IMG/VR virus record: IMGVR_UViG_3300028128_000337
Coordinates: 1 to 64,000 of that record
Direction: 5' to 3' (one strand)
Length of the DNA: 64,000 nt
Origin: a virus
Lineage: Duplodnaviria > Caudoviricetes
Of the stretch, positions 11,726 through 52,179 are shown in pieces (the first letter of the stretch is position 1; each line of letters opens with the position of its first letter). The notes under the pieces are model-generated. The model did no database searches. It was not told the origin of the DNA and saw only the letters and a program-made list of their open reading frames with translations. Made by a program: the position numbers and the translations under genes.

Positions 11726-12565
11726 GTGAATGAATCAAAAGACATACAAGGAATAGAGTCGTTATATGGCACTATACTAGAAAACGAGGACAATAAGGTA
11801 TGGAAATCTGGGGATTGTCCGAGCGCGTTAGGGGATTCTGAACATGCACATGACATCAAGCCGGAGGAGCCTTGCTCCACATCAGATGATGAATGTGTGA
11901 CTGGTGGAAAACCTGTGACCCCGGAGAATGACAAGGATAATGCTTACTACATGAACAAGATTAGTGAGAGACTTAAAGAAAACCGAGAAAAATCCGAGAA
12001 AAGTGTCCAGGAGCAGATAAATAATTCTAAAATCATGAGCGACGAACCTAATAACATCTTTGATAAGCTTTATTCAACAATTATGGAGGGAGATGATCCC
12101 TTTGGTGATCTAAACGGTATGGACGACGGTCTCGAAGGAGACGATCTCGATAGCGATGAAGAATTAGATCTTGGTGGTGATGAAGTAACACTTAACTTAC
12201 CACGCGATCTTGCTGAACAATTATGCGACGCTCTAAAGGAGCAGCTCGGAGGAGAAGAGGGAGATGACTCCATGGATGAACTTGGTCTAGATGATGGTGA
12301 AGATGAAATGTTGGGAGATTCTGTTGTGTCACAACCGGATCCTTCTGCTGCACCAGACGGAGTATCAAAATTAACAGGTACCAACAACAAGACTGATGGT
12401 AGTGGGTATTCCGCAGACAGTGGTTCAGCTGATGGTGGTAATATCAAGGAAGATCCTACACCCAAAGAAACCGGTAAAGGTAATTTCGAGAGTGGTAGTC
12501 ACGAGATGGCTGCTAAAAAGGATAACAAAGTTAGCAACCCGAAAACTAAAGCTCTAGGAGATTAA
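11726..12565 (+). CDS. Acidic low-complexity protein, probable prohead core/internal protein; possible nested start at 12035
   Basis: Very D/E/G rich; late promoter; ILE and IME candidate cleavage sites; internal TAAATA at 12018-12023 before in-frame ATG 12035. Confidence 0.5.
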   Translation: MNESKDIQGIESLYGTILENEDNKVWKSGDCPSALGDSEHAHDIKPEEPCSTSDDECVTGGKPVTPENDKDNAYYMNKISERLKENREKSEKSVQEQINNSKIMSDEPNNIFDKLYSTIMEGDDPFGDLNGMDDGLEGDDLDSDEELDLGGDEVTLNLPRDLAEQLCDALKEQLGGEEGDDSMDELGLDDGEDEMLGDSVVSQPDPSAAPDGVSKLTGTNNKTDGSGYSADSGSADGGNIKEDPTPKETGKGNFESGSHEMAAKKDNKVSNPKTKALGD

Positions 12566-12593
12566 AAACAATTTAACCCCCAAATCACAAAAG

Positions 12594-12620
12594 AAGCCGT
12601 TCATTAGAGCGGCTTTTTTT
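12594..12620 (+). terminator. Rho-independent terminator overlapping the next late promoter
   Basis: AAGCCGTTC-atta-GAGCGGCTT then a T run; the last T begins TATAAATA (12620-12627). Confidence 0.85.
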
Positions 12621-12633
12621 ATAAATACACATA

Positions 12634-13023
12634 ATGATGCTATACGAGAAACTGTTTACCAATCATTTGATGTGTGAGTTCAAGGACTTTCAGCAGCAAA
12701 AACGAAGGGCGGCGGAAGAGCCGTGGCATCGGAAAACCAACAAGGGACCGATGGCTAAGAATCAACATCAAGTGGCGGATCGCTACAAGGGTAGGTATAC
12801 CGGAGATGGAGAATTTAAGTTCAGTGGTGAGTTGAATAGCAAGATAGAATCGATCCGAGATGGTTCAAATCAACTGAGAGTATTATCACCCGCGGACATA
12901 CAGTATATAAAGATGAATTACCCTACCGGCTTGTCTAGGGACAAGCCGAGGCAGTTGAGTAACTCTGGTATGATTGTATATTGGGATAATGTTAAACGAG
13001 AGTGGTTTATACGTAAGAGATGA
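12634..13023 (+). CDS. Hypothetical late protein with capsid-targeting-like leader
   Basis: Perfect TATAAATA 6 nt upstream; MMLYEKLFTNHLMCE. Confidence 0.6.
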   Translation: MMLYEKLFTNHLMCEFKDFQQQKRRAAEEPWHRKTNKGPMAKNQHQVADRYKGRYTGDGEFKFSGELNSKIESIRDGSNQLRVLSPADIQYIKMNYPTGLSRDKPRQLSNSGMIVYWDNVKREWFIRKR

Positions 13024-13754
13024 GTGAGATTGATGATATATTTCGACAGAATGTTGGTTTCCGTTTTCTAGACAAGCAGAACAATTGTAATGAGCGAGAT
13101 AACTATAGAAAGTGGTGGTTAGAGCAGATATATCAGTACGGTACTATAGTGGATTACTATGTTAATAGCACTACACTAGACACTATGGACCCTTTGTATG
13201 GTGAAGAACCTACACAAAAATTTAACATGCCGCGTAAGATGATCTTCGCCATCTCCTTAAATGAGAATGCAGTGGTGTTACAGAAGTTTGGGTTGATGAG
13301 TGATGATGAATTGACCGGGTTTATACCTATAGAAAGCTACAATCTCGCGATGAGCTCTCAAGAGGTACCTTATGCTGAACCAAAAGCTGGAGATGTTATA
13401 GAGTTGTCAGAGTTCGGTAGCTCACGACCAGGTGAAAGAGGGGCTAAGAAATTTGAAATTACCGAAAGGTTGGATCAAGATGTGCAGCAGTTGAACCCTC
13501 TTCTTGGTCATTATGTTTGGTTGATCAAGGCTAAACGATTCGATTACAGTTACGAGTCTGGTATTACAGTTGAACCGGGACTCAATCAACCAACTGATGA
13601 CACATATCATGGTGGTTTGAGCGCTGATGGTGACACACAACTTGAGAGTGATCCGATATTCTTTAACGACGTGGATCGTGAGTCACGTAATATATTTGAT
13701 TATAGTGTGTATGGTGACTACGATGATATTTATGGTGGTTATGATGACGACTAG
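13020..13754 (+). CDS. Neck protein (gp14-like)
   Basis: EQIYQYGTIVDYY...DPLYGEE...LQKFGLMSDDELT...PKAGDVI...FEIT...LGHYVWLIKAKRFDYSYE. Confidence 0.85.
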   Translation: MSEIDDIFRQNVGFRFLDKQNNCNERDNYRKWWLEQIYQYGTIVDYYVNSTTLDTMDPLYGEEPTQKFNMPRKMIFAISLNENAVVLQKFGLMSDDELTGFIPIESYNLAMSSQEVPYAEPKAGDVIELSEFGSSRPGERGAKKFEITERLDQDVQQLNPLLGHYVWLIKAKRFDYSYESGITVEPGLNQPTDDTYHGGLSADGDTQLESDPIFFNDVDRESRNIFDYSVYGDYDDIYGGYDDD

Positions 13755-14077
13755 TCGGTTGATGTGTATGCATCAGTGTAGTCTGGTACCTGCTCACCTC
13801 TGAGCTCTGAGATGAAGTTTTCCGCGATTGATACATTATCAAATGGTAGTACTAATCTCACACCGGCATTGTCCGTAAATGTGTACATCACACTCTCGTC
13901 TTGCTTGTGAATACGTGTCAATGTGTATGTGACTCCAGGAGATAGTTTTGATTTAATCTCTGTAAATTTTGATCTACCGGAGCTAGCAGCTCTCAACTGT
14001 TGACTTGTCATCCCCGGCCGGATCTTGCTTACCGTTCGGTTAGATGATGTGATTTGTGTGCCTATGATGTAGTGCAT
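13751..14077 (-). CDS. Hypothetical protein
   Basis: Part of a tightly overlapping minus-strand ORF run. Confidence 0.6.
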   Translation of the reverse strand: MHYIIGTQITSSNRTVSKIRPGMTSQQLRAASSGRSKFTEIKSKLSPGVTYTLTRIHKQDESVMYTFTDNAGVRLVLPFDNVSIAENFISELRGEQVPDYTDAYTSTD

Positions 14078-14343
14078 TCTTCTTCCTCAGCAAGATCATC
14101 GATTATCTCGAATAACATACTTTCAGTACGCTCGTCAATATACTTTTGTATTGCTATTGGTTTAACCCAATTGATCGCATCACCCTTGACTCCCATCTGT
14201 TTGCATTTAGTGTCTATTATATCGACAGACTCAATAAGCGAAAGCCATCGAGAGACTTCATATTCGGACATCTCATATGTTGCGTCCTTCTTCGTTGATT
14301 TTAATTTTATCTTACGATCTTTATGTTTTTGTATATCAATCAT
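14062..14343 (-). CDS. Hypothetical protein
   Basis: Overlapping ORF run, protein-like composition. Confidence 0.6.
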   Translation of the reverse strand: MIDIQKHKDRKIKLKSTKKDATYEMSEYEVSRWLSLIESVDIIDTKCKQMGVKGDAINWVKPIAIQKYIDERTESMLFEIIDDLAEEEECTTS

Positions 14344-14764
14344 GAAAGTAGTTTCTTGTTATTTTTAATAAATATCCTAGCAGTGTGGATATCAATATAC
14401 TGTCTAGACCTTTGTCATTGTATTGTGTTAAGCCTTTGTTTATTTGCTGTATGCCAGTGCAAATGTTTTTCAAGTTTCTCTTCTCAAATGTGCTTATATC
14501 AGCAGTCATACAATGATTATATATTATATCATATATATTGCACAACAAATCAATATTGCTCAGATCTTCTCCAACCGCGCAGCTATATCCTTGTTTGTAT
14601 GCTTCACGTGTTTCAAAATCAGTCACATCATTGTAGAACTTATCCACACATTTTTTGAGATCCGCGTACCTCATACGAGCTTCCTCTACTGGTGCTATAT
14701 CAGCAGTGTTATTCTTTTCGGTTGTAATGTTATCGACACTAGTTTTTGAGCTTTTCTGTTGCAT
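14336..14764 (-). CDS. Hypothetical protein
   Basis: Overlapping ORF run. Confidence 0.6.
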   Translation of the reverse strand: MQQKSSKTSVDNITTEKNNTADIAPVEEARMRYADLKKCVDKFYNDVTDFETREAYKQGYSCAVGEDLSNIDLLCNIYDIIYNHCMTADISTFEKRNLKNICTGIQQINKGLTQYNDKGLDSILISTLLGYLLKITRNYFHD

Positions 14765-15182
14765 CTAATTTCTGTTGGTTGTATAGGCTTATCGATATTC
14801 TATCTTTATCTATAATTTCGGTTTTTTGTGCCACTACTATGTCTACATATATTGAGTTAGGTTTATCACAGTGCTCGCACTGGAATACATTCTCATCATT
14901 CATTCTGATCGGTACAAAGTTTGGTTTACCACAATAAGCACAATTCACATTAGCACCTTGTTGTTCATATATTTTTATACGCTCTGTCTCTTCACTCTCT
15001 AGACGGTTTTTAACAACCACTTGTAACATGGTGTTCCACATGTAAAAACCTATTATCTGTATTAAAAATGCACCAGCTCCAATCTTTAACGGAGATGCAT
15101 CAAACACAAAATAACCGGTGGCGGCTATGACACTAGACGCGAACACTGTCAACAACAGTGACATGGTTATGTCACGTATCAT
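14739..15182 (-). CDS. Two-TM membrane protein with C-terminal zinc ribbon
   Basis: Two hydrophobic N-terminal helices; CAYC...CEHC. Confidence 0.65.
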   Translation of the reverse strand: MIRDITMSLLLTVFASSVIAATGYFVFDASPLKIGAGAFLIQIIGFYMWNTMLQVVVKNRLESEETERIKIYEQQGANVNCAYCGKPNFVPIRMNDENVFQCEHCDKPNSIYVDIVVAQKTEIIDKDRISISLYNQQKLDATEKLKN

Positions 15183-15619
15183 GCGTGATCTTCAGGCGCA
15201 CTAGTGCCCACACTTATCTCGTCAATATCACTAGCAACATCTTTAATTGCTGCACAGATAGTGGATAGCTTTTTATGTATTTTTTTTACTGAGTTCATCG
15301 CTTTATCATTATCTTTAATAATACTGAATTTTGTCGATTGGGCAACTTTACTTTTAACTTGTGCAGCATCAACATACAATTGCCCGAGCTGATCGCTCAA
15401 CCCATCTTGCAATGGATATGGTAACCTATTGGGTGCCTTGCCCATCTCATTCTCCCATTCATTAGCTTGCTTCACAAGGTCAAGTAACGTTACTTTACCA
15501 GGCTTGAGGCTCATCGCTGATTGCCCTGCTCCACCACCAACACCTAAATAATTGTTGGATCCGGTTTGTAGGTCCTCAAAAATGGCTTGTTTTTTATCGT
15601 TTTTTTGCTTCATGTTCAT
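15179..15619 (-). CDS. Hypothetical late protein (coiled-coil) with capsid-targeting-like leader
   Basis: TAAGTA just upstream; ...KQAIFE. Confidence 0.6.
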   Translation of the reverse strand: MNMKQKNDKKQAIFEDLQTGSNNYLGVGGGAGQSAMSLKPGKVTLLDLVKQANEWENEMGKAPNRLPYPLQDGLSDQLGQLYVDAAQVKSKVAQSTKFSIIKDNDKAMNSVKKIHKKLSTICAAIKDVASDIDEISVGTSAPEDHA

Positions 15620-15654
15620 AATTACTTATACACAATACATAAATAATTAAGGCT

Positions 15655-16095
15655 ATGAAACTATTTGAATCAAAATTTTTTAACATTCTCGAGGAGGCTC
15701 CAGAAGATTTAACACAACCACCATCTCCGGGGACAGAAGCTGAAGTGGCTGCCGTTCAAGACACCCTCGAACCCACAACAAATCCTGAGGTGATGGACGT
15801 GCCGGATAATCCAGAGATCGCGCTCCGACAGCAACAGAGCCAAAGAACAATATCCACAATAACAACCTGGATAGGTGAGATTGAAAATTTTATAGACTAC
15901 TTGAATGGTACAGATGATGGTTCTATCAACTTCACAATCAATGCTGCTGACTGTGACAGTTTGCTTACTGATATACAGCGTAGTGAGAGTAAGAAAATTT
16001 CTAGACTGGCGCAAGATCTCTCGGGACTGGGTGAGTCATTGAAGCAGTATTTATTACTAGCTAAAAGAAAAGAGTCCGGTGCAGACTCTATTTAA
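15655..16095 (+). CDS. Hypothetical late protein with capsid-targeting-like leader
   Basis: TAAATA upstream; MKLFESKFFNILEE. Confidence 0.65.
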   Translation: MKLFESKFFNILEEAPEDLTQPPSPGTEAEVAAVQDTLEPTTNPEVMDVPDNPEIALRQQQSQRTISTITTWIGEIENFIDYLNGTDDGSINFTINAADCDSLLTDIQRSESKKISRLAQDLSGLGESLKQYLLLAKRKESGADSI

Positions 16096-17104
16096 TTTGT
16101 TTCAATTTAACAAGGCCCTGTAAGCCGCAATACGTGTTATCCAGTAGGTATTTTGTTGACACCTTGTTAAGTTTAAAATGCACGCACATATCATTGATAT
16201 CTTTGAACAGCTTGCCGGTGTCTTGCGGCCAAATAAACACACACTCACCCTGCTTAAGTAAAATATTTGTCTTCAATAAACTCGCACTATCTTGCCACTG
16301 ACTATCCAACACCCATACTGGTTGAGTTAAAAATAATCTCTCCAACTGTGCTCTCTGCGTTGATGTGAGTGTGTTCTGACTCTTCTCTTGTATGCCAGCG
16401 ACAGCCACAGAGTTGCTCACAAAAAAACTGTCTATAGGGCCTTCAGTTATAAATACATGTTCCGCGGAAGTTGACACTTGATCGTAATTGAACAATGACT
16501 TCTCACTATTTTGCTTTGACAAATACTTTGGACGGTTCGGGTCATTCAGTAAATCTCTAGATTGATAGAATATACACCGGTTCTCCCGGTCATTGAATGG
16601 TATTACCAACCGGTTTTTGTGTACCATGTCAGTTATGGTTGTGTATATAGATTTAGGGCGATTGGTAGCCACATTCAACCTTCTCTTAACTATAATCTCC
16701 GCCGCCAGTTTGACTATCTTGTTGTTCTTATAATATTGTAACTGTGTACGATCGAATAAATTTATACAATCTCGAGGTAGATCGGGTGTGAAAGGTATTT
16801 TTTTAGGAGTGACCACCGGAATTCCATATTCATAATCACATTTATCAATCTGCTTACACAATTCACGATAGTTTATGTTCTCTAGTTCCATGACCCAGTC
16901 TCCTGGTTTGCCATACCAACCGCAATTATGACAACATATTACACTATCCTTAGGTACATAGTAACACCGGGATTTTCTTCCCCAGCTCTTACCCTCTCTA
17001 CATATTGGACACCCACCAGTGTAAGTGTTTGTTGATTTTGTATATTTAGGGTAACCTGCGTGTTGATAAAACTTTTGAATTATGTACTCTTCTGGTACTA
17101 TCAT
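16088..17104 (-). CDS. DNA primase (gp61-like)
   Basis: Zinc finger CPIC...CHNCG; RLVIPF; YQSR; PKYL; TOPRIM ITEGPIDSFF; KDINDM. Confidence 0.95.
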   Translation of the reverse strand: MIVPEEYIIQKFYQHAGYPKYTKSTNTYTGGCPICREGKSWGRKSRCYYVPKDSVICCHNCGWYGKPGDWVMELENINYRELCKQIDKCDYEYGIPVVTPKKIPFTPDLPRDCINLFDRTQLQYYKNNKIVKLAAEIIVKRRLNVATNRPKSIYTTITDMVHKNRLVIPFNDRENRCIFYQSRDLLNDPNRPKYLSKQNSEKSLFNYDQVSTSAEHVFITEGPIDSFFVSNSVAVAGIQEKSQNTLTSTQRAQLERLFLTQPVWVLDSQWQDSASLLKTNILLKQGECVFIWPQDTGKLFKDINDMCVHFKLNKVSTKYLLDNTYCGLQGLVKLKQIK

Positions 17105-27286: not shown

Positions 27287-28936
27287 ATGACACACAACAG
27301 GCACGGAAAAAGGGACAATGATATAATATGGGAAGCACTATCAAACCGATACAACATCAAGCACAGTAAGCAATTGAGTAAATTGTGGGAACAGGATGTC
27401 AAGTATGTTGAGCAATTTTTAATTGATGAGGGTTTGATGGACACTGTCAAAAAGGGTTTTGGTTCTGTTAAAAACTTCGCTAGTGACAAGTTGCTTAAAC
27501 CAGTGATGGACTTTTTAGCGGGTATAATTGCTAAAGACCCTCAAATGTCGCAGAAGGCACAAGCTGCAGCAGCACAAGGTCCAGAAGCCTTACAACAACT
27601 CGCCAGTACAGAAGGTGATCAGAGTGTCATACAACAACTGGACCAACCAATTACACAAGGTGAGAGCTATGCATACCAATTTAAATTGAATCAAACAATT
27701 TGTGAAGCACTTGTTACGGTAGGTATATTGACAGAATCCGCTAGCAAATCAATACAGCAATGTAGATATGATATCGTGTTTGAGTCGATATTAACACTAC
27801 AAAAAACTGATTGCCCGTGGAAGCCTAGTGGTGTCGTCACTGAAAGCGCGCGGGAAATCGCGAGGCAAATCACGCAATTGATGAAACAGGGTGGTAATAG
27901 TAAGAAAGTTTTAAATGCTTTGTTGGCGACTGATGAATCAGGTTTTAAGGAGTATCTATTCAATAATTTGAAGGTACCGGAAGCAACATTAGACCGCAGA
28001 GTTCAACAAATTAAACGTAGCCAACAGACTGCTCCGACTGAACCAGTTGCTCCAACTGAAACAGAACCAGTTGCTCCAACTGAAACCGAACCGTTGGGTA
28101 CAACTGAACCAACTGAAACAGGATCGGTACCTCCAACGAACTCAGGAGCCTCTGATACTCAGGCGATTCCTCCTGCATTACCAGATGCATCAGCCGGGCA
28201 GAAAACCCCGGGGTTGTTGGGTAAGGTTTGGAATTTTATTAAGAATAACAAGGGTGCCATAGGTGGCGCAGCCGCGATGGGGCTTGCTGCAGCGATTGCC
28301 ACTAGTACTGGTAATCCTATGGCGTTTAGCTACCTGGTTGGTGGTCTGGTAGGTGGTGCTAAGGGTGCTATTCAGGGAGCAACTCAAACACAAGGCGGTT
28401 TTACTGACAAGTTAAAAGGTGCTGCAAATGCTGCTGGGACAGGTTCTATGAAGGCTGGTGGTTTAGCTGCAGCAGCAAGTGGTATTGGATCTGCAGCGAG
28501 CAACGCTGTGAATGGAGCGGAAGTACCAGGGAGTGTAGACCCGGTAACACCATCTACTCCAGGTGAGCCGGTTGATCCGGGTTCAGATTATGGCGGAAAC
28601 CCGGGAGATTATAGTACGGGTGGGCAATTTGATCAAGAGACTCCAAATATTGGTGGTTCAACCGGAGGTTTCAATCCAGAGACCGGTCAGAGTAACATGG
28701 ATTTATCTGATGATGAAGTGGCGGCATATAATGCACAATCACAAGCTGACGCTAATGGTGAAATACCAGGTGTTGATTATCAAGAACCGACAGCAACATC
28801 TCCGGAGGAAGCAGAAGCGGCAGCAGCAGGAGATACTAAATCATTTAGTCAAAAATTCAAGGATTTTTTCAAACCAGCTAGCCCGGAAAGGGCAGAGGAA
28901 TTGAGACGTATGAGACAACCGGTGAGTAGAAGATAA
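27287..28936 (+). CDS. Large late low-complexity protein, candidate ejected/internal virion protein
   Basis: TATAAATA 5 nt upstream; PTEP linker; Gly/Ala zipper hydrophobic segments; several hydrophobic-x-E sites. Confidence 0.6.
   Translation: MTHNRHGKRDNDIIWEALSNRYNIKHSKQLSKLWEQDVKYVEQFLIDEGLMDTVKKGFGSVKNFASDKLLKPVMDFLAGIIAKDPQMSQKAQAAAAQGPEALQQLASTEGDQSVIQQLDQPITQGESYAYQFKLNQTICEALVTVGILTESASKSIQQCRYDIVFESILTLQKTDCPWKPSGVVTESAREIARQITQLMKQGGNSKKVLNALLATDESGFKEYLFNNLKVPEATLDRRVQQIKRSQQTAPTEPVAPTETEPVAPTETEPLGTTEPTETGSVPPTNSGASDTQAIPPALPDASAGQKTPGLLGKVWNFIKNNKGAIGGAAAMGLAAAIATSTGNPMAFSYLVGGLVGGAKGAIQGATQTQGGFTDKLKGAANAAGTGSMKAGGLAAAASGIGSAASNAVNGAEVPGSVDPVTPSTPGEPVDPGSDYGGNPGDYSTGGQFDQETPNIGGSTGGFNPETGQSNMDLSDDEVAAYNAQSQADANGEIPGVDYQEPTATSPEEAEAAAAGDTKSFSQKFKDFFKPASPERAEELRRMRQPVSRR
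28031..28120 (+). repeat. 24-bp tandem coding repeat (EPVAPTET)
   Basis: GAACCAGTTGCTCCAACTGAAAC twice plus degenerate flanking copies. Confidence 0.85.
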
Positions 28937-36679: not shown

Positions 36680-37731
36680 TTGTATTTCCTATACAAGTCA
36701 ACAGTGTAGTCTATTATTTGTTGTTTATCGTCAACATCTTCTAGCATGTTTATAAATTCCTCAATGGCTATAGTAACATCCACTCCGGACAGGTCATGAT
36801 CATTCTCATCTTCAAGTCCGAATTTGTTAAATGTTATGTCGTAGTCCGCTGTTATGCTTTTCGCGTTCAATTCAATATATTTTTTTAACAGTAGATCCAT
36901 GTCATCAGGTGCCACCTGCCGGTCTATTATGAGCTTGACAATATTATTTGCAAACATCTCCCGGACTTCATCCGTTAGTGAGCCATGTGCTACTAGTTCT
37001 GATAATTTTATTTTTTGATGTGTTGGTGAGATATCATTTACGTAAAAATCATAATCTCCGGTCACAATGTCAAGTAAGTAATATCCTTTGATTCCATTAA
37101 CATCACCAAAATCCATTTGATATGGATTTCCTAGATATAATATTTTACCATTTTTATATACACGCTCCTCTCGTAAGTGAAAATGTCCGGTTATTACTAA
37201 TGGTGTTTTGGAGAGTATAGACTCACTCTTGATACCATCCTCACACACCTTGTGTTGATTGAACCGGAAAGATTGTATTTCGAAGTGGCCAAACACGATG
37301 TCACTCTCCATTATTTGTTCTGGTTCTGTACCCCATGGACAGAACATCAGTTTGCGATTGAAACACTCATATTGTGTTGGTTGTGATACAACCGTTATGT
37401 TATCCCACCCACTCAATATGGACAATGAATTGATATCTGATTTGTCCTTGTAATATGCATCGTGGTTACCGACTAGTATTACAATATTAAACCTTTTCCA
37501 CATGTTCAATATCTGTGTTGTAACATGTATGGTGTTTACAGCGATCTCATCTCGGTAATGAAATAAGTCCCCGGGTATTAGTATGTCTGTCACACCGTGC
37601 TTGTCTAACTCCCTAGACAACCAACCGGCCCATTCTACAGTAATGTCATGCCACATCTGCGAGTTTTGATGTACCCCGATATGTATATCCGAAACGCAAC
37701 AGACTTTTCTGTCGTTTAATTTAAGTTTCAT
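36676..37731 (-). CDS. Recombination endonuclease nuclease subunit (gp47/Mre11-like)
   Basis: SDIHIG, GDLFH, GNHD, GHFE, GHFH, YLGNPY. Confidence 0.95.
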   Translation of the reverse strand: MKLKLNDRKVCCVSDIHIGVHQNSQMWHDITVEWAGWLSRELDKHGVTDILIPGDLFHYRDEIAVNTIHVTTQILNMWKRFNIVILVGNHDAYYKDKSDINSLSILSGWDNITVVSQPTQYECFNRKLMFCPWGTEPEQIMESDIVFGHFEIQSFRFNQHKVCEDGIKSESILSKTPLVITGHFHLREERVYKNGKILYLGNPYQMDFGDVNGIKGYYLLDIVTGDYDFYVNDISPTHQKIKLSELVAHGSLTDEVREMFANNIVKLIIDRQVAPDDMDLLLKKYIELNAKSITADYDITFNKFGLEDENDHDLSGVDVTIAIEEFINMLEDVDDKQQIIDYTVDLYRKYK

Positions 37732-38155
37732 CAGAACCAGCACTTGTAGTCTTACCACCCATTGTAAATTCTTGTGCTAAATCTTCGTATACCATCTCTT
37801 GATAGTCAGACACAACCTGTCTTTGCTTTTTCTCCTTTTTTATTCTGTTGATGAAAGCGTGGAAGGCGATTGTGGTGAAGTATGAAAATGGATTGTTACC
37901 TGTAGACAGATCGAACTTTTTACTCTGTAACGCAGAAAACATTTTAACTATCGCGTCTCCAACCATGTCATCTTTGTATGAGTAGTTTATAAAATTTGGC
38001 GCGTAGCTCAAACCGGTTGCGATTTTAAATATCTTCATACCTAGTTCTTCACCAATGTCATCTGTACCACTTTCATAGTATGTTTTGATATCCTGTGTGA
38101 ATTCCTTTGGACTCACATAGTATGGTTTATCTTTCTTTGATTTTCTTGATGCCAT
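37721..38155 (-). CDS. Late transcription sigma factor (gp55-like)
   Basis: YVSPKEF..IATGLSYAPNFINYSYKDDMVGDA..NPFSYFTTIAFHAFINRIKKEKKQ. Confidence 0.95.
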   Translation of the reverse strand: MASRKSKKDKPYYVSPKEFTQDIKTYYESGTDDIGEELGMKIFKIATGLSYAPNFINYSYKDDMVGDAIVKMFSALQSKKFDLSTGNNPFSYFTTIAFHAFINRIKKEKKQRQVVSDYQEMVYEDLAQEFTMGGKTTSAGSDET

Positions 38156-40023: not shown

Positions 40024-40290
40024 ATGAAATTATTCGAACAACAATTTATCAAACATCTCATTAGTGAGGACAATGTGGCAGGTGCCGGGGGTGTATTCGG
40101 ATCCGGGGAAGATAGTGTGACGCAGTCCATGAGTCATGGGGGGGATTTCGATAATACCGATTTTTACAACCCGGATGACACTAGAATTGCTAAAGGTGGT
40201 AAGAGAGGTGGTAAAAAAAAGAAAAAACATGATGGTAGCTTACAGCCATTGATACCATTGCAGCGTAGAATAACAATAAAATCATTGTAA
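40024..40290 (+). CDS. Small protein with capsid-targeting-like leader and basic tail
   Basis: MKLFEQQFIKHLISE|D; KKKKK C-terminal segment. Confidence 0.6.
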   Translation: MKLFEQQFIKHLISEDNVAGAGGVFGSGEDSVTQSMSHGGDFDNTDFYNPDDTRIAKGGKRGGKKKKKHDGSLQPLIPLQRRITIKSL

Positions 40291-41399: not shown

Positions 41400-41990
41400 A
41401 TGACTTTTGACAAGAGTATCAGTAAACATGAAAAAATTTATTTGAACAAGCATGACAGGTCGACTACTACAGATAAATTAGATACACTATTAGAAGGTTT
41501 CACAGATTTTGCTGATAAATTTCACTCAGCAGCCATGGGAGGTGATTCCATTGGAGCTGGTAAACAGATTGCAGGCACCATGCAACAGGCTAGTGATAAG
41601 ATATCTGGTGTCACTTCCGGTGATCGGGCGATGGAGCAGAGCATTAAGCAAGGTTGGACTAACATGACCTCCCAACAACAGTCCTCTTATAACCAACCCA
41701 ATCAAAACTTACAGCAAATAGCGCAAAACACACCAGGGTGGGAGAAATATAGAGACTTAACCGGGTTTAACAGGTATGCAGCAGAAGTTAGACTCAACAA
41801 GCATGTCACAGATCCTCAACAGCGTGAGACACTAGGATTACAACCAAGGAGGACGGAAGTCAAACAAGGTGAACAAGGATGGGAGGACAAAGTGAAGAGA
41901 GAGTGGGATCGCTTACCGGATGCACAAAAGAATTCCAGTCATTTTAAGAATGATTTTACCAACTATTTGAATTGGAGAAACACTCAATAA
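41400..41990 (+). CDS. Hypothetical late protein, candidate internal protein
   Basis: TATAAATA at 41387-41394; LDTLLE|G. Confidence 0.6.
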   Translation: MTFDKSISKHEKIYLNKHDRSTTTDKLDTLLEGFTDFADKFHSAAMGGDSIGAGKQIAGTMQQASDKISGVTSGDRAMEQSIKQGWTNMTSQQQSSYNQPNQNLQQIAQNTPGWEKYRDLTGFNRYAAEVRLNKHVTDPQQRETLGLQPRRTEVKQGEQGWEDKVKREWDRLPDAQKNSSHFKNDFTNYLNWRNTQ

Positions 41991-42008: not shown

Positions 42009-42344
42009 ATGGATAAATTTATAAGCATTATTGATGAGAATCTTAAAATTCTCAATGAACAGGAACCACCAACAGAACCATCCGGAGATGTGCCACCTCC
42101 ACCACCAGAGACCGAGACACCTCCAAGCGAGTTGCCGGATCAAGACGCTGGTGATGACGACACATCCAAAATGAAGATTGACTATGTGGAGATGATCAGA
42201 AAAGCGTTGATCATGGCACCCAAACACATCGATGACGTGGATTACGCCCGGTTGACCAAGATTGTTGACACAGAGAACTTAGAAGAGATGCAAGAGTTGG
42301 TGAGCAGAATTGTTCGTAACAATTATCCACATCCTGATTTGTGA
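42009..42344 (+). CDS. Hypothetical late protein with capsid-targeting-like leader
   Basis: TAAGTA upstream; MDKFISIIDENLKILNE; Pro-rich linker. Confidence 0.65.
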   Translation: MDKFISIIDENLKILNEQEPPTEPSGDVPPPPPETETPPSELPDQDAGDDDTSKMKIDYVEMIRKALIMAPKHIDDVDYARLTKIVDTENLEEMQELVSRIVRNNYPHPDL

Positions 42345-43495
42345 TGAGTGACCGTGATCTGAGAAATTTGTATGAAAACATCCAACGAGGGGATGAATAT
42401 ATTGCTCCGCGGAGAGCTCATGAGTTGTATCATGATGTATTGTCAGAAAAGCGTGGTAATGATGAGCTAAAAGTATTATGTAAAAAATTAAATGATATCG
42501 GTGATAGAGGATATCTATCAGATGGTGATATTTTATATTTGAATCAATTTTTAGATGCTCGTGCATATTTGCCGGTAATAACTAGTTATTTAAATGATAG
42601 TAACATAATACAAACAACGTTATCAGATAAAAATGCTGTTGAAGGCATAACAAAAATTTTACAATCTGCCGGTGTGTCCGATATGTTTGTCGAATATCTC
42701 AATTCGCAGCTGAGCTTTAACATTTTAGGTAAATCCGGGAATTTATTGGATATTATTTCTAGTAAATTGAGCAAATTTAACATACCACGTGATGTTATCG
42801 TACAGTTAATGCAGTTCGAAGGTACTGAAGGTGGTAGAGGTGTAGGTCAGTGTGAGTTAGGACTTGCGACGATATTTAATGATGTTACTGTTCGAGATGG
42901 TCATGGAGACCTTAGTTGGAAAGGTGAATATCTTGAAGTTAAAGGTAGTAAGGCTAGACTCGGTGGTAGAGATGTTCCACTCACGGGGTTCGAACAAACA
43001 ATATTAGGCTCATTCGCTATACAACATGAGCTACCATTTAGTACTATAAAGAGTGGTGGTGATAAATACAATATTGTTGATACAATAATTGGCTTAAGTA
43101 AAGCCGGGATTCCAACAGCTCAGCTGAAAGCCGGTGTGATTGAATTTGTTAAGAAATGTTATCCAAACTCAGGTAGTGTGCCAATACCAGGTTCGTTTAA
43201 GGATAGAGGTAAGCTGAGAAACTACCTAGAGACATGTTACTTTACCCACTACGCATTAACAGAGGGTGTTGAGCATTTTATTTTTATCAACACAGGTACA
43301 TCTCAAAAGAGTGGTTCAGATATTAAAACACCTACTGCTAACTTCGGTAAATTTATAATATTTCAAACACAAGATATACCAAAACTAGTAAATGCTGGCG
43401 CTATTGGTGCAAGTACAATAACTTCAGCTAACATTTACCCTAGTCTTGGTGCACCAAATGTTAGTCAGGTACCATTAGAGGGGGCGATGGAATAA
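42344..43495 (+). CDS. PD-(D/E)xK restriction-endonuclease-like protein
   Basis: GVGQCELGL...GDL..GEYLEVKG..ARLGG. Confidence 0.6.
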   Translation: MSDRDLRNLYENIQRGDEYIAPRRAHELYHDVLSEKRGNDELKVLCKKLNDIGDRGYLSDGDILYLNQFLDARAYLPVITSYLNDSNIIQTTLSDKNAVEGITKILQSAGVSDMFVEYLNSQLSFNILGKSGNLLDIISSKLSKFNIPRDVIVQLMQFEGTEGGRGVGQCELGLATIFNDVTVRDGHGDLSWKGEYLEVKGSKARLGGRDVPLTGFEQTILGSFAIQHELPFSTIKSGGDKYNIVDTIIGLSKAGIPTAQLKAGVIEFVKKCYPNSGSVPIPGSFKDRGKLRNYLETCYFTHYALTEGVEHFIFINTGTSQKSGSDIKTPTANFGKFIIFQTQDIPKLVNAGAIGASTITSANIYPSLGAPNVSQVPLEGAME

Positions 43496-43496
43496 C

Positions 43497-44825
43497 ATGA
43501 ATTTTAAAGCATATAACAGAGTAATAGAGGAAGGGGGTGCCTATGGTCACATGATGAACGTGCATGAGGACTACACTTTACAGTTTGAGGACCTGCAAAG
43601 AATCATCAAACAAGCGCTGACCGGTGGTATCAAAGGTCAAGTCAAAGAGAAAACTGACGGTCAAGCGTTAGCTGTGAGTCATCGTGCCAATCGTGTGTGT
43701 TTCGCAAGGAACAAGGGTCATTACAAGAACTTTGGCAAGAACGCCATACGTGGTGCCAAGGGCATTGCAGAATTTTTCAAGGAGCATCCGAATGACAACG
43801 TGAAAGAAGCGTTCACATTCGCGGCAAAGGATCTAGAGAAAGCCATCCTGGCGTTGAGTGACAGACAGAAGCAACTGTTGTTCGCAGATGGCAAGAGATG
43901 GATCAACGTGGAAGTGATCTGGCCAGCCACTGTGAATGTGATACCGTACAATCACGAGCTGTTGGTCTTGCACAACTTTCGTGAGTATGATGAGGATGGT
44001 AATGTTGTTGATGGTGATTTTGACGAGTATGGTCGCATGATGGCAGGCATGATCGAGCAGATCAACCAACACGTGCAGGACAAATTCACAATAACCAGCA
44101 TGCCAATATTGAAATTGCCTCAAGTTAAAAATTTTGAAGCCAGCATCGGTGAGTATCAAGGTGTGTTGAGCAACCTGATGACCGAACACGGACTGAATCC
44201 TAGCAACAACATCGGTGACTACTGGGTGAGTTACATGAGCCGAGTGGTTCAGAACGGAGCACGTGAGTTCGGTTACATAGCACAAGCAGATACGCTTAGA
44301 AGAATCGCGTATAGATGGGCGTTCAAAATGCTCACTCCAGGCAAACGTCCCAAAGATTACAACTCGTTAGCGTTGAGCAAGATCACCGAGCTCAAGGGTA
44401 TGGTTGACAATCGAGAGTTCATACAATGGATCAGCGCCACCGAGAAGAGTGGTGAGCTCAAGAGCATCTACAATCGGATGATCGAGCCTCTCAAAGCGTT
44501 GTTTCTCAAGCTTGGTGTGGAGTTGAACAAGAACATTTCCAATCTACTCACACTGAATCCATCACAAGCTGTCCAGGAGATACGACAAGGAATTGAAGAA
44601 GTTACAAGAGAAATTGAGGCGACAGGAGATCTAGCATTGATGGACAAGCTACATCATGAGCTAAAAATGATAAACAAGCTGGGTGGACTGGACAACATAG
44701 TACCAAGTGAGGGTCTCACGTTCACATACACGTCACCTGGTGACAGCGAGCCTAAAATTTACAAATTCACGGGCATATTCGCACCAGTTAATCAAATTCT
44801 AGGTAGCTTAAAATTCAGTCGGTGA
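43497..44825 (+). CDS. ATP-dependent ligase/nucleotidyltransferase-fold protein (RNA-ligase-like)
   Basis: Motif I EKTDG; NVEVI; C-terminal SEGLTF and YKFTG resembling motifs IV and V. Confidence 0.55.
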   Translation: MNFKAYNRVIEEGGAYGHMMNVHEDYTLQFEDLQRIIKQALTGGIKGQVKEKTDGQALAVSHRANRVCFARNKGHYKNFGKNAIRGAKGIAEFFKEHPNDNVKEAFTFAAKDLEKAILALSDRQKQLLFADGKRWINVEVIWPATVNVIPYNHELLVLHNFREYDEDGNVVDGDFDEYGRMMAGMIEQINQHVQDKFTITSMPILKLPQVKNFEASIGEYQGVLSNLMTEHGLNPSNNIGDYWVSYMSRVVQNGAREFGYIAQADTLRRIAYRWAFKMLTPGKRPKDYNSLALSKITELKGMVDNREFIQWISATEKSGELKSIYNRMIEPLKALFLKLGVELNKNISNLLTLNPSQAVQEIRQGIEEVTREIEATGDLALMDKLHHELKMINKLGGLDNIVPSEGLTFTYTSPGDSEPKIYKFTGIFAPVNQILGSLKFSR

Positions 44826-45056
44826 TCAAGACTGTCTCAATTTCTTGATTTTGTCATCCATGTAGCGTTCTGATTCACGTTTAGCTCTAGACAGATCTGG
44901 TGTTAATTTCTTACCTTGTTCATCCATCTCTTCAGCACTCTGCTGTATTTCTATAGCGGCATCCATCTTCTCACCTTCAGTTTCTTCATCCGAAGCCTCA
45001 TATATGCTCATGTACGCTTGTTGCAGTTGATCAAATTCGTTTCTCTTTGTGTTCAT
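44826..45056 (-). CDS. Small late protein with capsid-targeting-like leader
   Basis: TAAATA 6 nt upstream; FDQLQQAYMSIYE. Confidence 0.6.
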   Translation of the reverse strand: MNTKRNEFDQLQQAYMSIYEASDEETEGEKMDAAIEIQQSAEEMDEQGKKLTPDLSRAKRESERYMDDKIKKLRQS

Positions 45057-45690: not shown

Positions 45691-46158
45691 ATGCATAACA
45701 AGACGTGGAAGAAAGAAAAGGATTTATTATCTGAAGCTTACGCTTCAATCAGCGAGACAACTCATGAGAATGATGCGCCGGCGCTTGGTAGGGATGAAGA
45801 GAGACAGTCTGATGGTAGTGTTAAAAACATTAAGACCGGAGAGACGGTGTACACACCCAAGGATAAGAGTCAAGCGGATGAGGGTATCGCGACTGATTTG
45901 GCGAACGCTGATCGACCCGCGGGAGATGATCACCTTGAAATGGAGCCCGGAGAGGTACCGGAAGACATAATGGGACATGAACCGGATGAAGTTGACGCGG
46001 AAATTGATTCTTTAAAAAATTTAATTCTCAACCCGTCCAAAGACAAGGTAGAGGAATACGCACGTAACGGTCAATTACATGTGTATGTGGATATGCTTAA
46101 AAAGAAGTTGGAAGCTGCTGAAGCTGTAAAGGCAGCGGTACGAGGGGAACAGGATTAA
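45691..46158 (+). CDS. Acidic late protein with capsid-targeting-like leader
   Basis: TAAATA 5 nt upstream; KEKDLLSEAYASISE. Confidence 0.6.
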   Translation: MHNKTWKKEKDLLSEAYASISETTHENDAPALGRDEERQSDGSVKNIKTGETVYTPKDKSQADEGIATDLANADRPAGDDHLEMEPGEVPEDIMGHEPDEVDAEIDSLKNLILNPSKDKVEEYARNGQLHVYVDMLKKKLEAAEAVKAAVRGEQD

Positions 46159-47500: not shown

Positions 47501-47935
47501 ATGTCCAAATTCAACTCAATACTAGAAAATCATTTGAACACAACTAGTCTACTTAGAATACGTATCAAACATGACCCGGCTAATGATCCAGGGCAGTTGG
47601 AGGAATATGTGGGTTATGTGCTCGAGGAAGACGGTACTGGTAATATTGTAGCAATCGTTCCCAGCATGGGTTCAGATACAGTGTCGCTCGGCCCGGATCA
47701 GTACCTGCCGGATGCTGAAGGTTGTGGTATCAGACAAGATGAACTGGCTGCGTTTAAGAAGCATGTGGTGAATTTTTTGATGGCTAGGGGTTATCATGAT
47801 GCTGTTAGTAACAGTATGGAGCATATAATACATGCAAATGATGTCAAGATGTTAGAGAATATACTAGTACAAACATGTGGATGTGATTCAGGTGCGATAC
47901 TTGACATGTATAGGGATTTTATACAGGATGTTTGA
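47501..47935 (+). CDS. Hypothetical late protein with capsid-targeting-like leader
   Basis: TAAATA 5 nt upstream; MSKFNSILE. Confidence 0.6.
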   Translation: MSKFNSILENHLNTTSLLRIRIKHDPANDPGQLEEYVGYVLEEDGTGNIVAIVPSMGSDTVSLGPDQYLPDAEGCGIRQDELAAFKKHVVNFLMARGYHDAVSNSMEHIIHANDVKMLENILVQTCGCDSGAILDMYRDFIQDV

Positions 47936-48584
47936 GTCATTTGAACAGCTGTACAACACTATCATAAGCGAACAACAAAATAATGTTGAAAAAATTGGTG
48001 TGTTTCCAGGAGCATTCAAACCACCACACATGGGACACTACGCCACTGCATTGAATGCATGTAAATCCAACGACAGGGTCTATATTTTTGTTTCGAATAA
48101 GTCCAGAGCACTGACCACACAACACATCGCAAAACAAAAAGGAGCGAAAGATTGTGATGCAGATCGATATAGTAACTTCATGAAAAATGACAAATACACC
48201 AGCAACCTGCTGAGTATCAGCCCGGCAGCTTGCGCGCGGATGACGAGTGCCAGTGCCATGCGCGCAGCAATTTCTATAAAGGACAAAAACACAATATTCA
48301 AAAACTTACCGGATGGTGTTGACAAAGATTATATCTTCGGTTTACTTATGATGAGCAATGATCAAAACAACCCAGAGTATGGTCATATCTCAATAGAGCA
48401 GACCATGCAAATATGGTCACAATACAAACAACTACTTTTGAAGCACTCTGGTAGGTCAGATCAAGATATTGTGCTGCAGATTTCCCAAATAAGTCCCGTC
48501 AAAGACACATATGACCTGGTGCATGAGATAAATAACAGTGAGGGTGCTAGAAATACTAGTGTCAATTTATATGTAGGTACATGA
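47928..48584 (+). CDS. HxGH (cytidylyltransferase-like) nucleotidyltransferase
   Basis: IGVFPGAFKPPHMGHY; SASAMR; leader MFESFEQLYNTIISE. Confidence 0.75.
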   Translation: MFESFEQLYNTIISEQQNNVEKIGVFPGAFKPPHMGHYATALNACKSNDRVYIFVSNKSRALTTQHIAKQKGAKDCDADRYSNFMKNDKYTSNLLSISPAACARMTSASAMRAAISIKDKNTIFKNLPDGVDKDYIFGLLMMSNDQNNPEYGHISIEQTMQIWSQYKQLLLKHSGRSDQDIVLQISQISPVKDTYDLVHEINNSEGARNTSVNLYVGT

Positions 48585-49015
48585 TGAAGAGGTTTGGTAG
48601 ATATGATAGTGATTACAACAATCTGTTTGAATGTTACAGTAAGGTTCAACCTGGACTTATACGTGAGGTGAGTCTACCGAGCATGACGCGACAGAAGATC
48701 ACCAAATCACATGGTAATTCATATCCAGAACTAGAAACAGTCAAAATATTCATACAACAACCCGGGCGTGGAGCGGATCTAAGACATCAGGTATCCAATT
48801 GTGAAGTGATGAGTGATGATGGTGATGGGGGTGTTGTATTGACCGGGGAGGATGGTAGGGACACGATACATGCTGTGTTGACCAAGCGAGATGCACAGAT
48901 AAAGGTGATAGATTCTAATGATGGTCATGTTGAGAATGAATTTATAACAACCATACAACCTAAATTTGATTCAGATCAAAAGGAACTTAGAATAATACAT
49001 GTAGAAGAATTATGA
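48581..49015 (+). CDS. Hypothetical protein
   Basis: Overlapping ORF run; DYNNLFECYSKV leader. Confidence 0.6.
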   Translation: MMKRFGRYDSDYNNLFECYSKVQPGLIREVSLPSMTRQKITKSHGNSYPELETVKIFIQQPGRGADLRHQVSNCEVMSDDGDGGVVLTGEDGRDTIHAVLTKRDAQIKVIDSNDGHVENEFITTIQPKFDSDQKELRIIHVEEL

Positions 49016-50119: not shown

Positions 50120-50907
50120 CACAACACAAACCAATACCAACATCATTAGATTTATCTGAGAGTTTCTACTCTGTTCAATGCGAGGGTAACACAACAGGTT
50201 ATCCAGCGTATTTCATACGATTGAAATCATGTAACTTAATGTGTGGTGGGAGAAATGGCTCGTTGATGGACACCGGTGAGGCTACATGGTGGTGTGACAC
50301 TGAAGCTGTGTGGCGGAAGGGATTAGAGAAGCCCTTTTTCAAGTTGGTTCAACAATGGGAGGAAGAGAAGATTGATCAGTGGATATACAATGGTAGAGTG
50401 CATTTGATATGGACTGGTGGTGAGCCTACCATACCTAAGCACCAGCGAGCTATTCCTGCGTTCAGTGAATTTTTGAGACAACATGCCTTCAATCAACACA
50501 ATATAGAGCTCAACACTTTTGATGAAATTGAAACAAACGGTACGTTGGTTATCCAAGATCAATTATTCTATATGTTGGATCAGATCAATTGCTCGGTAAA
50601 GCTGGCCAATAGTGGTATGGCAGAGAACAGGCGTATTGTACCGGCAGCCCTAGAAAAGATAATGTCACATGATAATTACTGGTTCAAGTTCGTGATCAGT
50701 ACAGAAGAGTGTCTTAAGGAGATTGAGAGAGATTTCATCAAACCATTCAACATACCACACGATAGAGTGATGATGCAACCGGGTCTAGATAGACAAGAGA
50801 ACTACCACGAGAGGACTCGTTTCACCCTAGAGATGGCTAAAAAGTATGGTTATATTGGATTGTCTAGATTACATGTGTCAGCGTGGGACAAATTGACTGG
50901 CGTTTAA
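50116..50907 (+). CDS. queE: 7-carboxy-7-deazaguanine synthase (radical SAM)
   Basis: ESFYSVQCEG..G.PAYFIRL..CNLMC..WCDT, TGGEP, IETNGT, FKFVI, RLHV..W. Confidence 0.93.
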   Translation: MTQHKPIPTSLDLSESFYSVQCEGNTTGYPAYFIRLKSCNLMCGGRNGSLMDTGEATWWCDTEAVWRKGLEKPFFKLVQQWEEEKIDQWIYNGRVHLIWTGGEPTIPKHQRAIPAFSEFLRQHAFNQHNIELNTFDEIETNGTLVIQDQLFYMLDQINCSVKLANSGMAENRRIVPAALEKIMSHDNYWFKFVISTEECLKEIERDFIKPFNIPHDRVMMQPGLDRQENYHERTRFTLEMAKKYGYIGLSRLHVSAWDKLTGV

Positions 50908-50930
50908 CATATGTGTAACTAAATATTATC

Positions 50931-51635
50931 ATGAGACTATCAATATCAGGTACCGCAGCACAAGGTAAGACAACACTGCTAGATTCATTTTTAAACCAAT
51001 GGGAGATGTACTCTACACCGGAGATTAATTACCGAAAATTGTTGAAATCCGATACCCATAGCAAAAATACTAACAAAGAGACACAATGGTCCATTTTGAA
51101 TCATATGATTGATCAGATTGAAACCTATGATGAGAAGGCTAATGTTATATTTGACAGATGTCCTCTGGATAATCTAGTGTATACCATGTGGGCATGTCAC
51201 AAAAAAGTGGGAGACATTGATGATGCGTTTGTTGAGAAGTGTATTCCTATTGTGAAAGAATCTATGAAGTTTCTGGACATAATCTTCATCATACCCATAA
51301 CGAATGTAGCTCAGAGTGATATCGAGGATGATGGTAAAAGAGAGACAGACTCTGAGTATATCAGTGAGATTGATAATTTTTTTAAAGCTCTATATAACAA
51401 TTGGAACAGTGAAGATACTCGTTTTTTTCCAAAAGAAGATCGCGCAGCATTGATCGAAATATTCGGTACAACACAGGAAAGATTGAAGATGTTAGAGTTG
51501 TATGTCACTACAGATGGGGGTATGTATGGTGATGAAGACACGTTAGTTGACACTAATATGCTGTTTGATGAGTTTGGTTACCCTTTGCTACCGGACGACC
51601 AATTTGAAGATTCCGGTAACAAGACCTATAAATAA
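50931..51635 (+). CDS. P-loop nucleotide kinase-like protein
   Basis: ISGTAAQGKTTL; IFDRCPLDNLVY; EDDGKR. Confidence 0.75.
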   Translation: MRLSISGTAAQGKTTLLDSFLNQWEMYSTPEINYRKLLKSDTHSKNTNKETQWSILNHMIDQIETYDEKANVIFDRCPLDNLVYTMWACHKKVGDIDDAFVEKCIPIVKESMKFLDIIFIIPITNVAQSDIEDDGKRETDSEYISEIDNFFKALYNNWNSEDTRFFPKEDRAALIEIFGTTQERLKMLELYVTTDGGMYGDEDTLVDTNMLFDEFGYPLLPDDQFEDSGNKTYK

Positions 51636-51641
51636 CTATAT

Positions 51642-51896
51642 ATGAAACAATTCAATGAGCGTTTAGATGACATAACAGAAAATTACGGGCTGTTCAAGAC
51701 CGTAGTCAGAGAAAGATACCCAAGTAAGTTAAAATTGAGTGAAGAGTTTGTTGAAAGTTTCAAGCGCGAGTTTCAGAGTCAAGTAGACCCACTATACACG
51801 GAAGATGAAGACGGTGTACAAGTTTTGAGCAGAGAGGCTCGTGATCCTAAAAGAGTGTTGAAAGAGTTTCAAAAAGCTCTCAAGTTTTTGATTTAG
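51642..51896 (+). CDS. Small late protein with capsid-targeting-like leader
   Basis: TATAAATA upstream; MKQFNERLDDITE. Confidence 0.6.
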   Translation: MKQFNERLDDITENYGLFKTVVRERYPSKLKLSEEFVESFKREFQSQVDPLYTEDEDGVQVLSREARDPKRVLKEFQKALKFLI

Positions 51897-52179
51897 GTTT
51901 CTTAACCAACTGGTCACCGGTCTTCGTCAGGCGGTCTCCCTTCTCATAATTTTTACCAGAGTTAGTCACCCTTATCTGTACAACTCTACCAGGCATGTTG
52001 TTTTGATTTTTCACCTTGTCACTATCCATATGCGGTAATCTTATAACCTTCTCTACATCACCCTCAGAGCCACCATGCTCACATTCACCGTTTATATTTT
52101 TGACATGATCTCCTTTTTTGAGTTTGCTCGCTAATGTCTCTTGTATATGCTTGTTGAATCTCTCTTGAAATAATGACAT
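51880..52179 (-). CDS. Small late protein with capsid-targeting-like leader
   Basis: TAAATA 5 nt upstream; MSLFQERFNKHIQE. Confidence 0.6.
   Translation of the reverse strand: MSLFQERFNKHIQETLASKLKKGDHVKNINGECEHGGSEGDVEKVIRLPHMDSDKVKNQNNMPGRVVQIRVTNSGKNYEKGDRLTKTGDQLVKKPKSKT

Follow-up and report, generated by a model that had tools for sequence, protein, structure and literature searches.

The 64-kb window analysed here, the start of a 98,278-bp virus contig (IMG/VR record IMGVR_UViG_3300028128_000337; completeness of 46% according to CheckV), raises the question why numerous genes dispersed between positions 11,726 and 52,179 encode proteins that start with the same kind of short amphipathic helix ending in hydrophobic-x-Glu. 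An earlier inspection of the nucleotide sequence (hereinafter, the sequence-only reading) had taken these N-termini for leaders, on about 18 genes, that resemble the capsid targeting sequence (CTS) of the internal proteins of bacteriophage T4 and load cargo into the phage head. The results described below suggest that the products of about 13 late genes begin with a T4 CTS-type propeptide and would be loaded into the head and trimmed; judging from sequence comparison, we consider this interpretation fairly probable.

All 18 N-termini singled out previously are present, with coordinates and strands confirmed; they represent 17 open reading frames (ORFs), given that 11726 and 12035 share one frame (genes are designated here by their lower coordinate in the window). 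Of the claimed genes, about 13 appear to hold up, 42344 fails, and 41400, 48581 and 27287 are tentative candidates. The claimed proteins are mutually unrelated in BLAST comparisons, as the sequence-only reading had maintained, and PHROG and Pfam offered no family for them save one weak cytidylyltransferase match. Across the 14 credible ORF starts, the predicted leader is an amphipathic N-terminal helix of 9 to 22 aa that ends in I/L-x-Glu, the typical pattern being M-x-x-[F/Y]-x3-[F/L]-x3-[I/L]-x-E. The type-A leaders (12634, 15655, 40024, 42009, 47501, 51642 and 51880) have F/Y at residue 4 and F/L at residues 7-8, and in the type-B leaders the helix is placed a few residues further inward. 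The credible members are the following.

11726..12565, plus strand: long form of an acidic Asp/Glu/Gly-rich protein; GTG start; 19-aa leader (11726-11782) ending I-L-E; TAAGTA late box
12035..12565, plus strand: short form of the 11726 gene, with a late promoter and ATG of its own inside the frame; 18-aa leader ending I-M-E, then a hypervariable acidic linker
12634..13023, plus strand: basic 129-aa protein; 15-aa type-A leader
15179..15619, minus strand: 146-aa protein; leader ending I-F-E; TAAGTA box
15655..16095, plus strand: 146-aa putative core protein; 14-aa type-A leader, variable Pro/Ala/Glu linker and conserved helical C-terminal domain
40024..40290, plus strand: 88-aa mini-protein; 15-aa leader, copy of the N-terminal arm of the major capsid protein (MCP), poly-Lys insert and copy of the MCP L-I-P-x-x-R-R segment
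42009..42344, plus strand: 111-aa Pro/Glu-rich protein; 17-aa leader; heads the translationally coupled operon 42009-44825
43497..44825, plus strand: predicted RNA-ligase-like nucleotidyltransferase with a K-x-D-G motif; 12-aa N-terminal helix ending I-E-E/G-G (here and below, the slash marks the cut or joint)
44826..45056, minus strand: 76-aa acidic protein; 20-aa leader ending I-Y-E; ATAAATA
45691..46158, plus strand: 155-aa acidic protein; 22-aa leader ending I-S-E; ATAAATA
47501..47935, plus strand: 144-aa protein; 9-aa leader ending I-L-E; ATAAATA
47928..48584, plus strand: predicted cytidylyltransferase/NMNAT-like enzyme; N-terminal extension of ~24 aa (its leader ends I-S-E) ahead of strand beta-1 and the H-x-G-H motif
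51642..51896, plus strand: 84-aa protein; 13-aa type-A leader; TATAAATA box
51880..52179, minus strand: 99-aa basic protein; 14-aa type-A leader; ATAAATA

As an a priori T4 rule, we required [IL]-x-E to end at residues 8-24 and derived the expectation from internal windows (the motif occurs in 12.5% of the internal 19-aa windows). On the 98-kb contig, 24 of the 92 N-termini follow this rule compared to 11.5 expected (binomial p 3e-4). The counts are 3/26 among early and replication genes, 2/22 for tail, fibre and terminase genes, 0/7 for glycan genes and 4/20 for other genes; these four classes are at the background level, and therefore it is the claimed set that holds the whole excess, about 12 N-termini. 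The early and replication genes had been named beforehand as the control on which the proposal would founder, and it is at background there that the motif was found. The same rule yields an excess in G001, a 139.6-kb relative that serves as an independent comparison genome (46 vs 28.2 expected, p 4e-4), and in G006 (38 vs 25.6, p 0.008), a contig of 146.8 kb that shares its sample with G008 and is taken as the complementary fragment of that relative; the DNA polymerase of G008 is 81% identical to that of the window, and G006 has one structural gene in common with the window (61% identity). In 78 kb of T4, 28 N-termini follow the rule compared to 19.1 expected (p 0.02), the excess being as large as the set of gp21 substrates known from that region. 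A stricter type-A pattern, tuned on the present window, matches 9 of the 92 N-termini of the contig (about 1.5 expected) and 13 of 180 in G001 (3.7 expected), with 500 shuffles reaching at most 9. A ZOOPS-EM motif search of residues 2-31 was dropped as over-fitted because it called 56% of the proteins members.

That the leaders are functional peptides is best supported by their conservation: across the clade, orthologues have a conserved leader followed by a freely varying linker. In the 15655 family (28-30 sequences, with identity down to ~36%), the first 14 residues keep M1, F/Y4, F8 and [ILV]-L-E, and hydrophobic-x-E is found in 30 of 30 orthologues; in the alignment of 28 sequences, F8 is invariant and the 20-40 residues past the leader vary in both length and sequence. 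These orthologues swap K/R and E/Q/D yet retain F4, F8 and [IL]-x-E. The 12035, 12634 and 15179 families behave in the same manner, with [IL]-x-E kept in all 33 orthologues of 12035 (each preceded by ATAAATA at a distance of 5-11 nt), the M-x-[LIV]-[FY]-E-x-x-F...E pattern together with the TATAAATA box in 11/11 orthologues of 12634, and [LI]-F-E followed by Asp/Glu in 10 of the 12 orthologues of 15179. Orthologues of 40024, 42009, 44826, 45691, 47501, 51642 and 51880 also retain leaders and late boxes. The leader is kept in six orthologues of 42009 (mostly behind ATAAATA), two of 44826 (one with Asp for the final Glu), five close orthologues of 47501 (the G001 copy is longer and ends L-V-L-E) and five of 51642, G001 included; in five orthologues of 45691, the core of the leader is kept and the downstream sequence diverges. 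The orthologues of 51880 keep an N-terminal helix with [VI]-x-E, and the copy from locus L093 ends F-I-A-E, as the T4 CTS does.

When leaders of different genes are compared, second codon positions have an identity of 0.57 and third positions one of 0.37, near background, and no copied DNA is shared. The peak at second positions points to selection on the peptide and speaks against both a recently copied DNA cassette and a pure mRNA-level constraint; the portable promoter-plus-leader cassette envisaged by the sequence-only reading is therefore not supported.

The genes 11726 and 12035 deserve a separate mention. They form a nested in-frame arrangement (11726-12565) with an inner promoter and start at 12035 and a shared C-terminus, and this arrangement is kept in 28 relatives. 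In 28/28 relatives, an open extension of about 100 codons continues the frame upstream and has a conserved leader of its own, preceded by ATAAGTA with GTG in close relatives and by ATAAATA with ATG in distant ones; the possibility that 11726 is a mis-called start was rejected given the conservation of the extension. Thus, the gene appears to yield two products of different length, both with a leader, which bears out the earlier proposal that both positions are leader starts.

The claimed genes are predicted, from their promoters, to be expressed late, alongside head assembly. TAAATA ends at most 15 nt before the start in 10 of the 17 claimed genes and in 22 of the 75 others (Fisher p 0.027). 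Three further claimed genes have the TAAGTA variant, which swaps with TAAATA at the corresponding site of orthologues, four are downstream genes joined by translational coupling, and 40024 has TATAAT as its only box. Altogether, 16 of the 17 claimed ORFs have a late box (TAAATA/TAAGTA) or an operon position, as had been noticed previously; frequent insertion against the local gene orientation, which had been noticed as well, is limited to four or five genes.

Two further features of gene starts were observed. At most gene starts of the window, the late TAAATA and the early sigma70-like TATAAT boxes end ~5-7 nt before the start codon (for example, at 3179-4102 on the minus strand, 27287, 30659-33223 on the minus strand, 47501, 49502 and 59073), with a modal box-to-start spacer of 5 behind late boxes and 6 behind early ones, and few Shine-Dalgarno sites are visible; therefore, many of the mRNAs are probably leaderless. 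ATAAGTA stands in place of ATAAATA as the late box at 15179-15619 (minus strand), 11726 and 42009 and also at the prohead protease gene of a close relative (L200:6001-6687).

The best anchored member of the set is the mini-protein 40024, whose family is, by sequence comparison, a paralogue of the N-terminal arm of the capsid protein. The G001 copy is 62% identical to residues 62-104 of the MCP of the same genome (BLASTP, E 2e-15), and the last Glu of the family's leader occupies the same alignment column as the Glu of T4 gp23 L-T-E/A, which we take to be the site at which maturation takes off 65 residues. Five orthologues retain the leader, and the protein is basic (pI 9.5) and contains poly-Lys; it may bind DNA while docked on the inner shell or serve the protease as a decoy. 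When all claimed proteins were compared with the head modules of G001 and G006 by BLAST, 40024 was the only capsid paralogue. Copies of the family are found at 40024-40290 (plus strand) in the window, L087:7680-7931 (minus strand) and L204:12554-12772 (plus strand).

The protease that such a site would call for is known through relatives. In G001, scaffold-like and gp23-type genes adjoin a Peptidase_S77 gene (E 1e-35), and G006 has a protease-scaffold-capsid block with an S77 protease; the N-termini of both proteases retain the L-L-[IV]-E/T site of T4. These findings indirectly support the presence of a gp21-type (S77) protease in the lineage.

A second boundary comes from 43497. In this family (22 sequences), E12, G13, G14, H18, K52, D54 and G55 are invariant; neither Pfam nor PHROG yielded a match. 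The AF2 model has a mean pLDDT of 84, with residues 1-17 below 50, and its best Foldseek matches are Rnl3, T4 Rnl1 and Rnl2, with a probability of up to 0.99 but an E-value of ~1e-3 and low TM. From the model and the conserved residues, 43497 is predicted to adopt a nucleotidyltransferase fold with the motif I lysine of the ATP-dependent RNA ligase superfamily. It is a stand-alone gene in the window but the C-terminal module of an 800-1700-aa ORF in 16/16 loci of other marine T4-like phages. At their N-terminus the long ORFs carry either a CTS-like leader or a leader and a nucleotidyltransferase module, and in all 16 the joint of the ligase module reads hydrophobic-L-E/G-G; in the cultured Microcystis phage Mel-JY01, in which both enzymes are fused, it reads I-A-E/G-G. 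The long ORF lies just upstream of the TerL and portal genes in all five loci that were mapped, and an S77 protease is encoded ~7-9 kb from the ORF on 5/5 tested contigs. Thus, what is a gene boundary here is a protease-type motif inside a polyprotein elsewhere, as expected of a cleavage site. Taken together, the 40024 and 43497 families indirectly support a tie between the terminal Glu of the leader and a real head-maturation or module boundary.

The other candidate enzyme, 47928, shows a comparable layout: Pfam PF01467 begins only at residue 25, the extension before the first strand is at least 18 residues long in 101 of the 106 homologues, and hydrophobic-x-E is present in 104 of the 106. 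In the AF2 model, helix 2-16 has a pLDDT of ~65 compared to at least 96 for the core. Proteins of the 43497 and 47928 types form a conserved pair, encoded by separate genes in the window and fused or modular elsewhere (L175:4305-6224; L146:5208-9191); one of the 800-1700-aa ORFs additionally carries an H-E-x-x-H segment.

Under the interpretation that we favour, the leader genes would be driven by gp55-dependent late promoters, the leader helix would bind the scaffolding core of the assembling prohead, and, after shell assembly, a gp21-type (S77) protease would cut behind the Glu and free the mature protein inside the head, where it would either stay or leave with the DNA at infection. The proposed set would comprise conserved core-like acidic proteins (11726/12035 and 15655), the capsid-arm mini-copy 40024, small variable proteins and, probably, two enzymes, the nucleotidyltransferase-like 47928 and the RNA-ligase-like 43497. 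The capsid-targeting part of the sequence-only reading is thus supported, indirectly, by conserved, T4-CTS-like leaders on dispersed late genes, a protease in relatives and the boundaries of 40024 and 43497, without the cassette that had been attached to it. The expectation of a much larger cargo is not borne out, with about 13 credible genes here and, in T4, roughly 10 head proteins whose N-terminus is processed; that of a more enzymatic cargo depends on two candidate proteins, 47928 and 43497. T4 already packages an enzyme, Alt. It is conceivable, but in our judgement doubtful, that marine T4-like phages package the nucleotidyltransferase and RNA-ligase-like set, as a polyprotein or as tagged genes, and inject it against RNA- or tRNA-targeting defences, and that this lineage also packages a shell-docking, DNA-binding poly-Lys mini-copy of the capsid arm.

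Several results weigh against head loading and are discussed here along with the explanations that they favour. Some of these concern individual members of the claimed set.

41400..41990, plus strand: weak candidate; the quoted L-L-E is at residue 32, conserved as I-L-E-G
48581..49015, plus strand: ambiguous candidate; N-L-F-E kept in two orthologues
27287..28936, plus strand: 549-aa ORFan; TATAAATA box; opposes the flanking early genes
42344..43495, plus strand: claimed member that fails; Glu of L-Y-E

In 42344, the Glu of the supposed leader is replaced by Lys or Arg in orthologues, and this gene was rejected as a leader gene. The window copy of 41400, already described as weaker in the sequence-only reading, has diverged from the clear M-x-D-K-F...L-x-E leader found in two orthologues; in 48581, the whole N-terminal region is conserved, without a distinct linker; and the candidate 27287 has zero relatives in IMG/VR and no matches in PHROG, Pfam or the ESM Atlas.

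The principal competing explanation is that unrelated proteins here simply begin with an ordinary helix, conserved in each for the sake of its own fold, in which hydrophobic-x-Glu arises by chance or through helix capping, with no targeting and no cut. Amphipathic [IL]-x-E helices are indeed common, as the background frequency given above attests, and are not limited to head proteins: the type-A pattern applied to T4 recovers IPII and IPIII together with three false positives, lysozyme and Rnl2 included, and the [IL]-x-E rule wrongly picks up UvsY. The enrichment of the type-A pattern in G006 (6 vs 2.7 expected) is not significant, and the invariant E-G-G of 43497 may be structural. A rigid ungapped profile of the 15655 family showed no N-terminal enrichment in G001, and helices from inside the DNA polymerase and the fibre proteins score as high against it as N-termini do. 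The motif is therefore generic, and it is its position, rather than the motif itself, that is unusual; given the low specificity of the rigid profile, position-based and conservation tests were used instead. These tests are difficult to reconcile with ordinary helices: the excess N-termini are limited to one gene class, a conserved leader followed by a hypervariable linker is unlike a helix integral to a fold, the junction of 40024 is homologous to a capsid maturation site, the gene boundary of 43497 is a polyprotein joint, and the Pfam domain of 47928 starts only past the leader. On this evidence, we regard the explanation by ordinary helices as unlikely.

Less likely again, in our assessment, is that the leader is a real shared signal with another purpose, such as a different late assembly or compartment, chaperone binding, regulated degradation or a maturation tag, with no capsid packaging. 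Conservation and late expression show that the peptide matters, whatever its purpose. Moreover, the predicted mature parts are mostly acidic (pI above 7.5 in only 6/17, with most at pI 4-6), unlike the basic, DNA-binding internal proteins of T4; the two gene clusters of the window lack an adjoining head gene, there being no head gene anywhere in the window, and the entire 98-kb contig lacks a gp21-type protease, a gp23-type capsid gene and the head module. Head loading is nevertheless favoured by the terminal [IL]-x-E, which fits the one protease family known for such tags in T4-like phages, by the capsid paralogy of 40024 and by the tail, fibre and baseplate proteins of the contig, which have no leader. 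Finally, the view that the similarity reflects a first-codon constraint of (nearly) leaderless mRNAs with AT-rich, unstructured 5' ends, without selection on the peptide, agrees with -10-like boxes so close to most start codons that the coding start is the mRNA 5' end and with the abundance in the leaders of residues with AT-rich codons, but is very improbable because early genes with equal promoter-to-ATG spacing are at background for the motif, identity between leaders peaks at second rather than third codon positions, and orthologues exchange charged or polar residues while holding F4, F8 and [IL]-x-E.

The interpretation of the leaders as head-loading propeptides can be put next to known systems. 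Propeptides of the T4 type are 10 to 19/20 aa long, with targeting determined by residues 4 and 7 and processing by residues 8 and 10 (PMC9026906; PMC5694885). The leaders of the window conform, at the sequence level, to this definition of the T4 CTS in length, the I/L-x-Glu end and positions 4/7. In the T4 record, IPI, IPII/IPIII, Alt, gp22, gp24 and gp21 show N-termini of this same build, and the IPII/IPIII leader fits the pattern derived from the window. The similarity to the CTS of IPI, IPII and IPIII and the Alt propeptide extends from the short amphipathic leader itself (aromatic residue at 4, hydrophobic one at 7-8, I/L-x-Glu end) to its presence on otherwise unrelated proteins, the late and dispersed genes, the gp21-type protease known in relatives and the inclusion of at least one enzyme in the cargo (here, predicted from sequence). 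Unlike the T4 CTS, the window leaders are mostly longer (13-22 aa vs 10) and more varied, and one gene has two nested leaders. Unlike the T4 internal proteins, the mature parts are mostly acidic rather than small and basic, with 40024 the closest, and the members are conserved clade-wide and not limited to a hypervariable internal protein locus.

The core proteins gp67, gp68 and gp22 and the vertex protein gp24 of T4 also have a gp21-processed N-terminal helix that ends in L/I-x-E, and are conserved head-assembly components rather than accessory cargo, which is a further likeness to the window set; the acidic low-complexity tail of gp67 resembles the 11726/12035 product. The window genes differ from these in lying away from the head module, and no homology of the 15655 family to gp68 or gp22 was detected by hhalign (probability below 1%). 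In the giant phages phiKZ, 201phi2-1 and SPN3US, 8-19 head proteins are cut C-terminal to Glu at a minimal motif, and there are enzymes among the packaged proteins (PMC5694885, PMC9026906); cleavage in these phages takes place at A/S-x-E, and propeptides often exceed 100 residues (PMC5694885). These phages would resemble the window in having propeptide-bearing inner-body or ejection proteins and a gp21-related protease that cuts after Glu; the window leaders differ in being short and T4-like, with I/L at P3. The leader-headed multi-module ORFs (loci L104-L170) share with the window the two enzyme modules, the L-x-E/G-G joint and the kind of N-terminal leader; they adjoin TerL, portal and protease genes, whereas in the window the modules are separate genes with their own leaders, far from TerL. 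In the literature, we found no account of CTS-type leaders outside the T-even and giant phages. The most original parts of the present proposal are the capsid-arm mimic and the split-or-fused enzyme cargo.

If the leaders act as they do in T4, a simple sequence rule places about a dozen ORFans of an abundant uncultured marine phage lineage, one without a name in any family database, inside the head, and their likely role would be delivery with the DNA or a part in the prohead core. The head-loading signal of T4 would then be ancient and widely used, far beyond the internal proteins of T-even phages. Two concrete objects come with this finding, namely, the capsid-arm mimic and the nucleotidyltransferase/RNA-ligase pair, a candidate cargo that is a cleavable polyprotein in sister lineages. 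If, conversely, the leaders are ordinary helices, the finding shrinks to a compositional curiosity.

As for the source of the window, megablast against cultured phages gave no matches. The large terminase is at most 38% identical to those of cultured phages and 63-86% identical to those of more than 200 uncultured viral contigs; therefore, judging from this protein, the phage is a deep-branching, abundant, uncultured branch of the T4 superfamily (a marine T4-like myovirus). The window also encodes a tail sheath protein, tube paralogues, hub proteins, a primase and an RNase H-like exonuclease, along with a gp32-type single-stranded DNA-binding protein (SSB), DNA polymerase, UvsY and a late sigma factor. 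Three of the genes outside the leader set are as follows.

9966-11711, minus strand: gp17-type large terminase
37721..38155, minus strand: gp55-type late sigma factor, reader of TATAAATA-type late boxes (PHROG 234, E 9e-32)
40299-40799, plus strand: RusA-like Holliday junction resolvase (PHROG 244, E 6e-20)

The resolvase gene lies within the cluster of leader genes, and G001 holds another gene at the same spot. A different shared N-terminus was observed in G001 (L084-L090), where about 15 genes open with one module of ~30 residues, M-A-D-V-T-I-S-Q-L... (for example, 110-718, 11204-16252 and 93060-95377); these probably encode exchangeable fibre or receptor-binding proteins on one anchor. In the window, the gene 63449-64066 has a start related to this module.

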